Positions 8,007-14,412 of a stretch of 64,000 bases of DNA are shown here, piece by piece. Source of the stretch: an uncultured delta proteobacterium (GTDB lineage: Bacteria; Desulfobacterota; RBG-13-43-22); contig CAVVCH010000051.1 of assembly GCA_963746605.1 (NCBI GenBank), positions 6,136-70,135 of the forward strand, in the 5' to 3' direction. Each line of letters starts with the position of its first letter. Positions within the stretch are counted from its first letter, which is position 1. The notes below the pieces were generated by a model. The model did not search any database. It worked only from the letters and a program-made list of their open reading frames with translations, and was not told where the DNA came from. The position numbers were made by a program, and so were the translations under genes.

Positions 8007-9005
8007 ATGAATCTCGCGAAATTTCCTCGAAGAAGGTATACGGCCGGGCAGACGCCCATTGAAAGGGTCCCCCGCTTCTCCGAAGCCCTGGGTGGTCCGA
8101 ATATCTACATCAAGCGGGATGATCTATTAGGACTGACCGCCGGAGGGAATAAGACCCGAAAGCTGGAATTCCTGGTGGCCGAGGCCCTGGTCCAGGGAGC
8201 GGATACGCTGATTACCTGCGGGGCTATCCAATCGAACCACTGCCGGCTGACCCTGGCGGCGGCCGTCAAAGAAGGATTGAAATGCCGGTTGGTCCTGGAG
8301 GAGCGGGTCCAGGGAAGCTACCGCCCCCAAGCCAGCGGCAATAATTTTCTCTTTAACCTCCTGGGGGTGGAGCAGGTCAAGGTCGTGCCGGCCGGGGCTT
8401 CCATGTTGGAGGAAATGGCGGCAGTGGCCGGGGAGTTGGCTGCCGTGGGCCGAAAAGGCTACGTGATTCCCGGAGGCGGATCGAATCCCCTGGGGGCCTT
8501 GGGATACGTGGCCTGCGCTCAGGAGATTTTGGCGCAGACTTTCGATCTCGGGCTGGACCTCCAAACCATCGTCTGCGCCAGCGGAAGCGCCGGGACCCAG
8601 GCCGGTTTGGTAACCGGCGTTCAGGGATGCAACCTGAATGTGCCCGTCCTGGGGATCAATGTGAGCCGTACCAGAGAGGCCCAGGAGGCCTTGGTTTATG
8701 GACTGGTTCAGCAAACGGCGAAGTACGTGGGTCTCAGTGCCTCGGTTCCCCGGGAAACGGTGACCTGCTTTGGCGATTACGTCGGACCGGGATACTCCCT
8801 GCCCACGCCGGGCATGGCGGAAGCCGTACAACTGTTGGCCAGGACGGAGGGAATCCTGCTGGACCCCGTGTATACCGGCAAGGCCATGGCCGGGCTGATT
8901 GACCTGGTGAGAAAAGGGTATTTCGAACGAGACAGCAATATCCTTTTCGTCCATACGGGCGGCTCGCCGGCCCTTTATGTCTATGAGGAGTATCTTCTTT
9001 CCTAA
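8007..9005 (+). CDS. dcyD: D-cysteine desulfhydrase / ACC deaminase family PLP enzyme (CuyA sulfo-lyase-like)
   Basis: IKRDDL..GGNKTRKLEFL (PLP lysine), GAIQSNHCR, IPGGGSNPLG, ASGSAGT and LLDPVYTGKA motifs. Confidence 0.9.
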   Translation: MNLAKFPRRRYTAGQTPIERVPRFSEALGGPNIYIKRDDLLGLTAGGNKTRKLEFLVAEALVQGADTLITCGAIQSNHCRLTLAAAVKEGLKCRLVLEERVQGSYRPQASGNNFLFNLLGVEQVKVVPAGASMLEEMAAVAGELAAVGRKGYVIPGGGSNPLGALGYVACAQEILAQTFDLGLDLQTIVCASGSAGTQAGLVTGVQGCNLNVPVLGINVSRTREAQEALVYGLVQQTAKYVGLSASVPRETVTCFGDYVGPGYSLPTPGMAEAVQLLARTEGILLDPVYTGKAMAGLIDLVRKGYFERDSNILFVHTGGSPALYVYEEYLLS

Positions 9006-9051
9006 AAGCGATTTCACCGCAGAGACGCAAAGGACGCAGAGATTGCATTAT

Positions 9052-9085
9052 TTTTCATTTGCCGGGAGATGCCGGCAAATGAAAA
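9052..9085. repeat. Perfect 14-bp-stem hairpin between dcyD and the racemase, next to an ACCGCAGAGACGC-type repeat
   Basis: TTTTCATTTGCCGG-GAGATG-CCGGCAAATGAAAA. Confidence 0.6.
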
Positions 9086-9206
9086 GCTCTCAGTCTCCGA
9101 GGGGTGTCCCTCGGTGCTCATTGTTGGGGCGCCGTTAAAGAGGCATCTTCAGGATTTTCGGGCTGAGAAAAAGGGACTTCAAAAAAAACAGGGAGTGGGG
9201 CAGGGG

Positions 9207-9934
9207 ATGAAAGAGAAGATCGTGGGCATCATCGGGGGGCTCGGACCGGAGGCCACCGTGGATCTCATGAGACGGGTTATCCAGGCCACGCCGGCCAGTG
9301 ATGACCAGGACCATATCCGCATGATCGTTGACTGCAATCCCAAGGTCCCTTCACGCATGAAGGCCATCCTGGAAGGGACCGGAGAAGACCCGGCCCCCTA
9401 CCTGGTAATCATGGCCAAAGACCTGGCGGCCTGGGGGGCGGATTTCCTGGCTATCGCCTGCAACACGGCGCATCTCTATCTTGGACCGGATCCAAGAGGC
9501 CGTTCCCATTCCGGTGCTCAACATGATCGATTTAACGGTCGATCAAGGTGGTCTCGGAAAATCCCGTTATCCGGAAAGCGGGTCTGCTGGCCTCTTGGAC
9601 CGTGATCCGGCCCGGACTTTACGAATCCGCCTTTCGAGAAGAGAGGGATCGCTCTGCTCCACCCCTCTCCAGCGCTGCAGGATCGGCTGCTGACCGCCAT
9701 CCGCCGAATTAAGACCGGTCACTACGGGCTGCCGGAAAGGGAGGCGCTCGAGGATGCCGGGAGGGAATCTGGTGGATCAGGGGGCCGCAAGCCCTGATCA
9801 TTGCCTGTACGGAACTCTCGGTGATAGCGGATGGACTCCAGATGAAGACCAGAATCTTCGATGCCTCCCAGGTCCTGGCCGAAGCCATAGTCCAGACGGT
9901 GAAGGGAGGAAACACCGAGACCATTCGATCTTAG
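9207..9934 (+). pseudogene. Aspartate/glutamate racemase family protein, frameshifted as given (several indels 9480-9660)
   Basis: GIIGGLGPEATVD, AIACNTAH (first Cys) and, in a shifted frame, LIIACTELS (second Cys) and FDASQVLAEAIV. Confidence 0.8.
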
Positions 9935-9940
9935 GGAGTC

Positions 9941-10402
9941 TTACTGGGTAGTACGGGAAATGAATTCATCCATCCTGAGGTCCCGGGCCTTCTGAAGTTC
10001 CATGAATTTTTGAATTTGTTCCACTGTCAAAATCGGGCGCACTTCTCTGTAAATCTGAGCGCGCTGCACGGCCAGTTCGGCCGCAATGGTTGACACTTTC
10101 TCGACTTGGGCCTTGATGGCGTCTTCACTCCAGGATTCCGATTGGATCAGATCCCTCAAGGCGCGGCGTTCCATGATAAACTGGTTCCTCAGAGGTTGGA
10201 TTGCCGGTTTATGGGCTTTAATAATTTCCTTGATCTGCAGTTTCTGGTCCTCGGAGAGTCCCAGAGCGGCTATCATTTTTTTCATGGGTTCACCTCCCCA
10301 GGAACTCCCATGAAAACCGGCCAGGGCCGGAATTTGTAAAATAATCAAACTCATCGCTACCACAAAAGCGACCATTCCAAGATTCTTCACAGTTTTTTTC
10401 AT
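9941..10402 (-). CDS. Spy/CpxP-family periplasmic chaperone-like protein
   Basis: Signal peptide; LGLSEDQKLQI and ILTVEQIQKF LTxxQ-type motifs; helical. Confidence 0.8.
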   Translation of the reverse strand: MKKTVKNLGMVAFVVAMSLIILQIPALAGFHGSSWGGEPMKKMIAALGLSEDQKLQIKEIIKAHKPAIQPLRNQFIMERRALRDLIQSESWSEDAIKAQVEKVSTIAAELAVQRAQIYREVRPILTVEQIQKFMELQKARDLRMDEFISRTTQ

Positions 10403-10529
10403 TATGGTTTCCTCCTTGTTTGATTATTGGACTTTGACCGGACCAATAAGGTTAAAAAGCCCTTGGACAGGAACGAGAGAGCAATAAAATAGTTTTACAA
10501 AATCCCTTGATGATTTTATAAAAGAACCC

Positions 10530-11885
10530 ATGTCTGAATCCACTTCTCCGGCGTCCGGACAACCTGAAGGGGCCGCCGGTCCTCATCCAAAGGTCTTTTA
10601 CGGCTGGTGGATCGTGCTGGGGTGCACGGCCATCCTCTTTGTCTCCTCCGGTATCGGTTTTTACGGTCACGGTGTCATCCTGGATCCGTTGCGGGAACGG
10701 TACGGTTGGTCCAAGGGAGTCATCTCCTCCGCGGTCACCCTGTATTTTTTCACCGCCGGAATCATGGGCATGTTGATGGGGCGCTTTATCGATCGCTACG
10801 GACCCAGACCCGTACTGATCCTCGGCTCGGCGACCATGGGAATCGGTTTACTGCTTTTGAGCCGGGTAACGCAGCTCTGGCAGTTCTATGCCGTTTATAT
10901 TCTTATGGCCGTAGGCTGGAGCGGCACCTCTCTGATCCCCGTAGGGACGTTGGTCGCCAACTGGTTTATCCGCAAACGGGGATTGGCCATGAGCCTGACC
11001 ATGACCGGGCTGAGCCTGGGGGGGATGGTCCTCGTGCCCCTGGCAGCCTATCTCGTCTTCCATTGGGGTCTGCGAGTGACCTTGCCGATCCTGGGATCCC
11101 TTTATTGTCTGGCAGTCATCCCGACTGCGGTCTGGGTCATTAAGCAGCGTCCCTCGGATGTGGGTCAGCTCCCGGACGGTTCACCCCCCACCTCCTCAAG
11201 GGGGAAGCCGGGCCGACCAACCCGCTATGCCTCTCAGTGGCGGGTCTGGACCCGGGCCGAAGCCCTGCGGACTACCGCCTTCTGGGCGATCGTCACGGCG
11301 TTTATGCTGGCCCTGAGCGGTCAGGTTGCTTTTCTGGTCCATCAGGTGTCGTTTCTGAGCCAGACCTTGGGGCCGAAGGGCGCCGCTTTGGCGGTAAGCG
11401 TGACGGCCGGCGCCAGCATCATCGGCCGCCTGTTCCTGGGATCGATCGCCGACCGCTCCGACAAGCGGTTCCTGGCCATGGTCTGTTTTCTTATCCAGGC
11501 CGGGGCCGTCCTTTCTATGGCCTATTTCCGTTCCGTGGGGGTCCTCTACCTCGGGACCTTGGGTTTTGGTCTGACCATGGGCGGGATCGTTATGCTGCAG
11601 CCGCTGCTCATCGGCGAGTGCTTCGGGCTGGTCTCTTTCGGCACGATAACGGGTTTGGCCGGGCTCTTTTCGGTTTCGGGGGCGGCCTTCGGGCCGGTTA
11701 TCGCCGGTCTGATTTTTGATGCCACCCGGGATTATCGGATCGCCTTTACCATTTTTGCCACGGCCAGCTTAGTGGCCATGGTGGCGGTCTTATTTGCCCG
11801 GCCGCCGGTTCGCCCCTTCGTCTCCGAAACGGAGACCCCTGATGGCCGGTCGAGCTCTGAACCGGGCAAGGGAAAATTCATGTGA
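10530..11885 (+). CDS. MFS transporter (monocarboxylate / oxalate-formate antiporter-like)
   Basis: About 12 TM helices; GRFIDRYGPR motif A; FYGWWIV N-terminus; GSIADRSDKR. Confidence 0.9.
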   Translation: MSESTSPASGQPEGAAGPHPKVFYGWWIVLGCTAILFVSSGIGFYGHGVILDPLRERYGWSKGVISSAVTLYFFTAGIMGMLMGRFIDRYGPRPVLILGSATMGIGLLLLSRVTQLWQFYAVYILMAVGWSGTSLIPVGTLVANWFIRKRGLAMSLTMTGLSLGGMVLVPLAAYLVFHWGLRVTLPILGSLYCLAVIPTAVWVIKQRPSDVGQLPDGSPPTSSRGKPGRPTRYASQWRVWTRAEALRTTAFWAIVTAFMLALSGQVAFLVHQVSFLSQTLGPKGAALAVSVTAGASIIGRLFLGSIADRSDKRFLAMVCFLIQAGAVLSMAYFRSVGVLYLGTLGFGLTMGGIVMLQPLLIGECFGLVSFGTITGLAGLFSVSGAAFGPVIAGLIFDATRDYRIAFTIFATASLVAMVAVLFARPPVRPFVSETETPDGRSSSEPGKGKFM

Positions 11886-12062
11886 AGGGCCGGGCCGTTC
11901 GTATACTTTTTTATTGATTTCTCTATTGGATTCTTGCATTGATAAGAGCGGTTCAGTTGGCGCCTGTCCTTATTTAAATGAAACGCCGGGGTAGCGGGCG
12001 TTGTTCCTTCGGTTTCGCTTTTAATTTTTTTACCGGTCAAACCTTGGAAGTGGAAACCAACC

Positions 12063-12897
12063 ATGAGTGAGAAAGTCGGTTCTCATCAGGGGATTCTGTC
12101 GTGTCGAAGGATTAAGTAAGGATTTCGGTGCACTAAGGGCCGTTAATCAAGTAACCCTTGAGGTTGAATCCGGCGTTCATTCCATTATCGGGCCTAACGG
12201 CGCCGGTAAAACGACGTTATTTAACCTGCTGACCGGATTTCTGAAACCGGACGAAGGAAGGATCTTCTACCAGGGAAGAGATATCACCCACCTCGAGCCT
12301 TTCGCGATTTCGCAGTTGGGCATGGCCCGCTCTTTTCAGATCACCAGCATCTTTCCCGAATTGACCGTTCACGAAAATATTCGCTTGGCCCTGGCTCATT
12401 TGCCGTTGAATCTCCAATCCCAGATGGTTTTTTATTACTTCCTGCTTCGTTCGGTGATCCTTTCGGCCCTGATTCTCATCCGGGTGGTCAATTCCCCCTT
12501 CGGGAAGACCTTGCAGGCCCAACGGGAAAATCGGAATCGGGCCATGAGCATCGGCTATGATGTCGATCGCTTCAAGCTGACCGCTTTTATTATCTCCGCC
12601 TTCTTCTCCGGGCTGGCCGGGGGTTTTTATGCCCTCCTGCTGAACTTTGTCCCCTTGAGTTCACTCCATTGGACCAATTCAGGAGAAGTGGTGGTCATGA
12701 CCATTACCGGAGGCCTGGGAACACTTTTCGGTCCGGTCTTAGGCGCCGTGGGCGTCATTCTCTTGCGGGATATCATCAGCAACTACACCGAAAGTTGGAC
12801 TTTTATTATGGGGATCCTCTTTATGGCCGCCGTCCTGGGATTCAGAAGCGGCCTGATCGGCATCCTGCGGACGAAGCTTAGACTGACTATTTATTAA
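12063..12897 (+). pseudogene. Chimera of a LivG-type ABC ATPase N-terminus and a LivM-type permease C-terminus
   Basis: Walker A GPNGAGKTT and ARSFQITSIFPELTVHENIRLA join in frame to FYYF..NSPFGKTLQAQREN..GGLGTLFGPVLGA; no Walker B or ABC signature; extra base near 12099 after MSEKVGSHQGIL. Confidence 0.75.
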
Positions 12898-13006
12898 TAA
12901 ATGGGCCTAGGGCAGGTAAGTTTCGTTATATGGGTCGGAAGGATAAAGGCTTGATGGTTCTGGTCAAACCGTTCTTTCAGTTCGAGGATTACAGGGGGAA
13001 GAGCGA

Positions 13007-14284
13007 TCATTTCTTTTTTTCCGACTTTTGTTTTTGAGGCGGCCCGAATAGTCGCCACAGGGCGTCCACGGGCAAGGCCTGTAATCGGGGGCCAAAAGGA
13101 ATAGGTTCTGCCCCGGTATAAAGGACCAGGCCCCGATGAAATCGTTTCCCCACTTCCTCGGCCAGAAATTTTAGAGATTTAAAGTCATGGGCATCCACTG
13201 TTGCGCTGGCTTTGATTTCGATACCCACCAATCGTCCCTGGGCATCTTCCAGGATGATATCTACCTCCTGGCCAGTTTGGGTGCGGAAATGAAATAATTG
13301 GGGCTGTGTCCGGCTCCATGAAATTTGTTTCCGAAGTTCCATCACCACAAAATTTTCAAGAAGAGGCCCGATATGGGGAGTATCGACGCTATCATGCTCC
13401 GACCTGAATCCTAATAGATGAGCCATCAAACCCGAGTCAGTGAAGAATATTTTAAAGGATTTTACCAACCTTTTACTCAGGTTTCCCGACCAGGACGGGA
13501 GCGTTTGGATCAAGAAGGTGGTCTCCAACAGACTCAGATACCGTTTAAGTGTCGTTTGGGGAATAGCGGTACTTCGGGAAAGTTCGGAGAAATTGAGCAG
13601 AGAGGTACTTCGAACCGCCAAAAGAGAGAGCAGCCTGGGCAACAGGGTAAGGCCTTCTATCTGGGCCAGATCGCGCACTTCCCGTTGCAGAATAGTGGTA
13701 ACATAGGAATTGAACCAGGCCTTGCGGCGGGATTCCCGGGATCGGCCGAGAATCTCCGGGAAACCTCCCGGCAAAACCATTTTATTCAGGAGATCAGCCC
13801 GGGTTGCCGGTTTTCCAGTCCAGGCCGGTAAATTGTCACTGAAAATTCCATCAATAAAGCCTTCCGATACCCCTTCTTTTTCGCCCTGAGAAAAGGGCCA
13901 GAGGGTAAGAATTTCCATCCTTCCCACCAGGGATTGGGAAAGATGGGGAAGAAACAGGACATTGGCTGATCCGGTGAGCAGAAACCGACCGGGTCGGCGC
14001 CGGCGGTCCACTTCGGCCTTTATGGCCAGGAAGAGATCCGGCACCCTTTGGACTTCATCCAGGACAACGGAGCCCTCCAGACCGGCCAGAAACCCGGCAG
14101 GATCATGACGGGCGGCCGACAACACATTCCCATCATCAAAAGTCAGGTAACGGGCGAGATGTTCTCCGGAGGCCAACCAGCGAACCAGTGTACTTTTCCC
14201 GGTTTGACGAGCCCCGACCAACATGACTACCGGGGTATCGGCTAGAGCTTCCAAAAGAAGAGGGGTGATGTTTCGTCGAATCAT
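13007..14284 (-). CDS. AAA+ ATPase with C-terminal DUF4143 / PD-(D/E)xK-like domain
   Basis: GARQTGKST Walker A, VLDEVQRVP Walker B, LLTGSA, C-terminal EVDIILE..IEIKAS. Confidence 0.85.
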   Translation of the reverse strand: MIRRNITPLLLEALADTPVVMLVGARQTGKSTLVRWLASGEHLARYLTFDDGNVLSAARHDPAGFLAGLEGSVVLDEVQRVPDLFLAIKAEVDRRRRPGRFLLTGSANVLFLPHLSQSLVGRMEILTLWPFSQGEKEGVSEGFIDGIFSDNLPAWTGKPATRADLLNKMVLPGGFPEILGRSRESRRKAWFNSYVTTILQREVRDLAQIEGLTLLPRLLSLLAVRSTSLLNFSELSRSTAIPQTTLKRYLSLLETTFLIQTLPSWSGNLSKRLVKSFKIFFTDSGLMAHLLGFRSEHDSVDTPHIGPLLENFVVMELRKQISWSRTQPQLFHFRTQTGQEVDIILEDAQGRLVGIEIKASATVDAHDFKSLKFLAEEVGKRFHRGLVLYTGAEPIPFGPRLQALPVDALWRLFGPPQKQKSEKKK

Positions 14285-14412
14285 GGTTAAATATTATCCA
14301 TTTAATGGTTAATTTTCAACCATAAAAAATATCCGTTTTACGGCATTTACAAATTATTTCCTTTATTCCCTGATTATCAATATAATACCATCATACCGCT
14401 ATGGAGGGAAAA

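Follow-up and report, generated by a model that had tools for sequence, protein, structure and literature searches.

A pair of adjacent, co-directional genes at 8007-9934 in the window (the whole stretch of DNA that was analyzed, 64,000 nucleotides long) belongs to the CuyA and CuyB families, and the same genome encodes dsrAB and dsrD. The locus probably represents the published two-step L-cysteate route; the breaks in the assembled cuyB frame are most likely consensus errors and cuyB itself is probably a working gene. By analogy with the enzymes of Bilophila and Ruegeria, from which the substrate, the stereochemistry and the respiratory use of sulfite are taken over, CuyB, a cofactor-free two-Cys racemase, would convert imported L-cysteate into D-cysteate, and CuyA, a PLP-dependent beta-eliminating lyase, would split D-cysteate into pyruvate, ammonium and sulfite. 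The sulfite would then serve as electron acceptor for the DsrAB/DsrD dissimilatory sulfite reductase, and the pyruvate as a source of carbon and electrons. The CuyB/CuyA system is already published and curated, and this locus adds one more copy. The following features were recognized:

8007-9005, plus strand: cuyA, predicted D-cysteate sulfo-lyase; intact, 332 aa, PLP fold-type II, DcyD/ACC-deaminase superfamily
9008-9091, no strand assigned: repeat and hairpin in the cuyA-cuyB spacer; CACCGCAGAGACGCAAAGGACGCAGAGA, a short dispersed repeat, followed by TTTGCCGG-GAGAT-CCGGCAAA
9207-9934, plus strand: cuyB, predicted cysteate racemase; cofactor-free two-Cys Asp/Glu racemase family, frame interrupted five times in the assembly
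9480-9791, plus strand: stretch of cuyB holding five +1 insertions, at ~9483, ~9545, ~9635, ~9759-9768 and ~9788
9941-10402, minus strand: Spy/CpxP-like LTXXQ periplasmic protein; 153 aa, convergent with cuyB, PF13801 and PF07813
10530-11885, plus strand: MFS transporter, OFA/monocarboxylate-like; 451 aa, PF07690, candidate carrier

The product of the gene at 8007-9005 passed the NCBIfam equivalog NF052482 sulfolyase_CuyA ("D-cysteate sulfo-lyase CuyA") with 531.3 bits at a cut-off of 450. The gene is thus a member of the CuyA family, and D-cysteate sulfo-lyase chemistry is predicted for it. A PLP lyase of the DcyD/CuyA family starting at 8007 had been proposed in the initial annotation, in agreement with the intact gene found there. 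The protein also matched PF00291, the domain of fold-type II PLP enzymes, and scored 292 bits on the XcbE model and 250-253 bits on the ACC deaminase models, all below the cut-offs of these models. It contained the motifs GGN48K49TRK, QS76N77H, PVY289TGK and HT317GG, and in an alignment N48-K49, S76-N77, Y289 and T317 were identical to the sequence of the DcyD structure 7ysk. Among the residues kept, Lys49 forms the Schiff base and Tyr289 is the base for D-substrates. The residues were matched to N50, K51, S78, N79, Y287 and T315 of StDcyD by motif only; the listed active-site residues are shared by CuyA and Salmonella DcyD (PMC11193023). The cuyA orthologues from the same genus were 91-95% identical to the gene of the window.

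The enzyme pair of Bilophila wadsworthia to which the initial annotation had pointed is indeed described in the literature, as the cysteate racemase BwCuyB and the D-cysteate sulfo-lyase BwCuyA (Liu et al., 2024, J Biol Chem, PMC11193023). BwCuyB racemises both L- and D-cysteate. From D-cysteate, which they prefer 50- to 100-fold over L-cysteate, BwCuyA and SpCuyA form pyruvate, ammonia and sulfite, and the sulfite derived from CuyA is respired by Bilophila (PMC11193023).

Another reading of the pair would be a DcyD together with an aspartate or other amino-acid racemase, acting on cysteine or another amino acid and not on cysteate. The two lyases have their superfamily in common, D-cysteine desulfhydrase is the annotation of the best-matching solved structures (7ysk, 358 bits), and BwCuyA retains residual activities of 4% on D-cysteine and 17% on D-serine (PMC11193023). 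However, while the CuyA model was passed, all three DcyD equivalogs failed on the protein of the window (311.3 bits against a cut-off of 429, 302.1 against 469 and 296.6 against 610). The racemase, read through its frame breaks, obtained 265 bits on the CuyB model, compared with 166 for the generic asp_race model and 26 for Asp/Glu racemase, and BwCuyB is inactive on L-cysteine and L-serine (PMC11193023). We therefore regard a DcyD-type pair as very improbable; the cysteine alternative left beside cysteate in the initial annotation is disfavored by the failed DcyD equivalogs and by the little or no activity of BwCuyA and BwCuyB on cysteine (PMC11193023).

The cuyB gene starts with ATG at 9207, runs in the same direction as cuyA and ends with TAG at 9932-9934. 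In the assembly its frame is interrupted. According to the ORF list the longest open piece spanned 9207 to ~9480 (90 aa), and the remainder was scattered over the other two frames. The catalytic Cys85 (TGC at 9459-9461, in ACNTAH) lies in the first piece, while Cys199 (TGT at ~9806, in ACTELS) lies in another frame. As assembled, the gene failed the cut-off of 190 of the CuyB model NF052483, with one match of 140.2-140.8 bits (profile positions 1-86) and another of 36.5 bits (109-224); the N-terminal 90 aa scored 140.2 bits over profile positions 1-83.

Three-way and five-way DNA alignments with relatives, among them the genomes G001 and G002, placed five +1 insertions in the gene. None of the five fell in a long homopolymer, and four were located within 1-6 nt of a substitution specific to the window. 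A read-through protein (P0001) was obtained by a translation that skips one base near each of the five sites. It ends at the natural stop, has 240 aa and both catalytic Cys, and is 83% identical to the CuyB of G002, whose gene is intact and scored 274.4 bits on the CuyB model. P0001 itself reached 264.9 bits on NF052483 and covered profile positions 1-224 of 225. Read through, the gene at 9207-9934 is a member of the CuyB family, and cysteate racemase activity is predicted for it. The initial annotation had described a co-directional two-Cys racemase extending to 9934: the family, the direction and the end coordinate were confirmed, and both Cys codons are present in different frames, but the assembled gene is not one open reading frame, since five +1 breaks divide it. 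The broken frame was absent from that annotation.

When the whole genome was searched with NF052483, the cuyB locus was recovered in pieces, together with a weak match of 54.7 bits on contig 51 (C51:136822-137286). This second match recurs across relatives, and we tentatively take it to be a housekeeping glutamate racemase. Programmed frameshifting or an alternative genetic code was considered for cuyB and appears implausible, as the five +1 sites have no common motif and are all missing in the relatives.

The five extra bases in cuyB are most likely consensus or assembly errors of an indel-rich bin, which we consider clearly more probable than a very recent pseudogene, and the organism probably has a working cuyB. 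One line of evidence came from an indel survey, which took 247 intact ORFs from ~350 kb of the same-genus genome G002; 148 of these had an orthologue in the present genome at an identity of at least 70%. Frame changes were found in 19 of these 148 ORFs (13%), dsrA included, and the genome-wide break rate was ~0.14 per kb. In the alignments of these 19 ORFs there were 19 one-base insertions and eight one-base deletions, besides three longer insertions; most of these changes lay outside homopolymers. A technical cause of the cuyB breaks is argued for because one-base insertions break 13% of the conserved genes and dsrA is one of them.

The substitution pattern points in the same direction. With window-specific substitutions polarised by G001 and G002, cuyB showed 8, 7 and 26 changes at codon positions 1, 2 and 3 (divergence 5.7%), compared with 7, 5 and 25 in cuyA and 16, 9 and 54 in the MFS gene. 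Relaxed selection on cuyB was thus not seen, because its third-position bias matches that of cuyA and the MFS gene. A gene that had gathered five neutral indels would be unusual in lacking an excess of neutral substitutions, and insertions placed beside window-specific mismatches look like the product of a noisy consensus.

All five insertions were missing in G001, G002 and the relatives L124, L125 and L129 at the sites that each covers. A Logan contig of run X2 lacked one base at 9480, 9543, 9636, 9761 and 9791, and one of run X3 lacked the first two, the sole sites that it covered. L125, a JGI contig with an MFS gene 91% identical to that of the window, has an intact cuyB with a called racemase gene of 235 aa. 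L124, with an MFS gene 98% identical, has a racemase gene of 218 aa with a different indel of its own. The runs in which the locus sequence occurred were wetland and soil metagenomes. Among the public contigs over the locus, four wetland runs contained near-identical cuyA pieces and none reached at least 99% identity over cuyB; among public metagenome contigs cuyB was covered only by relatives of ~92% identity. An exact-pattern scan of metagenome contigs at the first insertion site, with zero or one extra base, gave one match, from a relative of 88-91% identity without the extra base; this match bears on that relative and not on the present strain.

In G001, at least 12 bin-specific single-base indels were observed over ~14 kb of sequence syntenic with positions 1-22000 of the window, and its own cuyB and MFS genes are broken at positions other than those of the window. 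The scatter of indels in G001 is consistent with an error-prone long-read consensus in this set of bins. A comparable cluster was found in aprA of G002 (G002:C14:53502-55285), where seven mixed indels divide the gene into six pieces; as a test for an old pseudogene, its substitutions were counted, and 58% fell at third positions despite the seven indels.

The density of the breaks gives some room to the view that cuyB is a genuine, recently inactivated pseudogene and that this lineage has lost, or is losing, the L-cysteate route, with CuyA alone limited to D-cysteate or to slow action on L-cysteate or D-serine. All five insertions lie within 310 bp, ~100 times the genome-wide rate, and they are unique to this genome, while the remaining 11 genes in synteny over the first 22 kb (cuyA, the MFS gene and nine more) are unbroken. 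This 22 kb has four further single-base indels specific to the window, all of them outside these 11 genes. Because its breaks are dense and its 11 syntenic neighbors unbroken, cuyB is a true outlier and could have been inactivated recently. Mobile-element debris lies directly downstream of the locus, and many genomes have cuyA without a nearby cuyB (1052 of 1720; PMC11193023). Against decay stand the absence of a substitution excess with the third-position bias kept, and the same type of one-base insertion in the broken conserved genes of the bin, dsrA among them. In addition, cuyB carries five insertions and zero deletions; real gene decay in bacteria is biased towards deletions. Overall, inactivation of cuyB appears rather unlikely, and assembly or consensus error is preferred.

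The window is located on contig 51 of a bin of 4.56 Mb in 62 contigs, which is 94% complete. The closest named relatives were uncultured Syntrophaceae, Syntrophales and "delta proteobacterium" bins. A search for dsrAB had been suggested in the initial annotation, and dsrA, dsrB and dsrD were all found together on contig C61 (138.8-141.6 kb). The dsrA gene (C61:138831-140097) is split into two frames that scored 398.7 and 197.2 bits, and dsrB and dsrD scored 489 and 107 bits, respectively. Since the genome has dsrA, dsrB and dsrD, sulfite released by CuyA in the cytoplasm could be reduced. The models for aprA (TIGR02061) and sat (TIGR00339) gave zero matches in the 94%-complete assembly, which may reflect an assembly gap rather than loss. 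The aprA gene is intact in the same-genus genomes G001 (G001:C24:23315-25153) and G003, and a region of ~20 kb around apr in G001 was without counterpart here apart from ~1.4 kb at one end. Either an assembly gap or the loss of sulfate activation in some members of the genus would account for the missing aprA and sat.

The gap between cuyA and cuyB is ~200 bp. The hairpin in the 9008-9091 part of this spacer has a perfect 8-bp stem as read from the sequence, and ~8 partial copies of the spacer repeat were detected elsewhere in the genome. In four wetland metagenomes the summed contig depth was 88-254 in the bin over 9008-9091 versus roughly 0-22 in every other bin; therefore, the spacer repeat is common to many organisms or loci in those wetlands.

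Downstream of cuyB, the Spy-like gene at 9941-10402 on the minus strand and the MFS gene at 10530-11885 on the plus strand were located as the initial annotation had placed them. The NCBIfam Spy/CpxP matches of the former were weak and below cut-off. The Spy-like gene is polymorphic: in the window, L124 and L125 it separates cuyB from the MFS gene, in G001 it is reduced to a 3' remnant of ~60 bp, and G002 and L129 lack it. The MFS gene directly follows cuyB in G001, G002 and L129, whereas the Spy-like gene intervenes on the opposite strand in the window, L124 and L125; the order in L125 is cuyA, cuyB, spy (minus strand) and MFS. The MFS gene has a promoter-like site of its own at 10464-10493. 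A pattern scan for sigma-70 promoters and terminators returned promoter-like sites at the shuffled expectation and terminator-like sites ~2.5 sd above it, and did not define transcription units.

The best NCBIfam match of the MFS protein was an L-lactate MFS transporter model, at 177 bits with a cut-off of 320. A survey of species-representative genomes covered the 80 best cuyA loci; this MFS gene occurred at the same-genus locus only. The cuyAB genes were not found near the more distant MFS homologues P0012, P0016 and P0084 (64-74% identity). In two of these loci, and likewise in L125, a Peripla_BP_6 gene lies downstream of the MFS gene. The MFS gene could thus have been present at this site before cuyAB arrived, or belong to an older local context. 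The initial annotation had offered the MFS protein as the carrier: the gene does adjoin cuyAB within a genus-level clade, but the association does not extend beyond it. A role as cysteate carrier is possible and weakly supported, because the adjacency to cuyAB is confined to a small clade and the distant homologues occur in unrelated contexts.

We consider it unlikely that the protein encoded at 10530-11885 is an unrecognised cysteate carrier; in another, independent and likewise unlikely reading, cuyB would be truly decaying in a lineage that also lost sat and aprA. In the first case, the MFS protein would be an importer or a cysteate/product antiporter, recruited by this clade in place of the SDF, ABC or NhaC-type transporters found beside cuyAB elsewhere. 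In the second, the decay of cuyB with the loss of sat and aprA would be a snapshot of the remodelling of sulfur respiration.

The segment 11890-14400 is inserted in the window and missing in G001, G002 and L129. It contains a chimeric ORF (12067-12897), which joins the N-terminal part of an ABC ATPase to the C-terminal part of a BPD_transp_2 permease, and, on the minus strand at 13007-14284, an AAA_14/DUF4143 ATPase. Downstream of the MFS gene, L125 has intact livG/livF-like genes and the Peripla_BP_6 gene, and L124 has a permease fragment and an HTH/DDE_3 transposase. The 11890-14400 segment has the appearance of debris left by the rearrangement of a Liv-type ABC operon.

This locus adds an uncultured Syntrophales-like lineage, from wetland and soil metagenomes, to the known range of the published CuyB/CuyA cysteate route, and suggests that in these habitats organosulfonates can be a source of sulfite for respiration. 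The indel survey also bears on the reading of this bin: with frame-breaking single-base indels in about one in eight of the conserved genes of this bin, apparent pseudogenes such as dsrA and cuyB need read-level confirmation.

Within the survey of the 80 best cuyA loci, cuyB was adjacent in 27, the window counted. Other neighbors of cuyA in these loci were RidA, YheO-type regulators, polar-amino-acid ABC systems and NhaC-like carriers. Near the cuyAB genes of the window, a regulator, RidA and a sulfite exporter were looked for and none was detected.

The locus most resembles BwCuyB/BwCuyA of Bilophila. The two have the same enzyme families according to curated equivalog HMMs, adjacent co-directional genes and a host with dissimilatory sulfite reductase, and the predicted chemistry, from L-cysteate via D-cysteate to pyruvate, NH4+ and sulfite, would be the same. 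They differ in their neighborhoods, since the Bilophila genes are accompanied by a transporter of the SDF family (dicarboxylate:cation symporter) and RidA, neither of which was identified among the neighboring genes here, while the Spy-like and OFA-type MFS genes follow in the window and cuyB is frame-broken in the assembly. The hosts differ as well: Bilophila is a gut member of the Desulfovibrionaceae, and the locus described here comes from an uncultured Syntrophales-like deltaproteobacterium of wetland or soil.

SpCuyA of Ruegeria (Silicibacter) pomeroyi belongs to the same lyase family and prefers D-cysteate (PMC11193023). S. pomeroyi has in addition the regulator CuyR and the sulfite exporter CuyZ, neither of which was identified next to cuyAB in the window. 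It encodes its CuyB homologue elsewhere in the genome and either exports or oxidises the sulfite. In the window cuyB lies next to cuyA, and the host presumably respires the sulfite. DcyD of E. coli and Salmonella (PDB 4D96 family) is similar to CuyA in fold, in the Schiff-base Lys, in the Ser-Asn pair and in the Tyr abstracting the alpha-proton of D-substrates. In contrast to DcyD, the CuyA of the window failed the DcyD equivalog cut-offs, and its predicted leaving group is sulfite and not sulfide.

CuyB and CuyA also catalyze the last steps of the D-cysteinolate pathway (Liu et al., 2025, PMC12814064). Among the genes beside cuyAB, neither a PLP-dependent cysteinolate racemase nor an HpsN-type dehydrogenase was found, in contrast to the D-cysteinolate clusters of sulfate- or sulfite-reducing bacteria, which comprise CuyC, HpsN, CuyB and CuyA (PMC12814064). 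The final CuyB/CuyA steps of these clusters are the same as those predicted for the locus described here.
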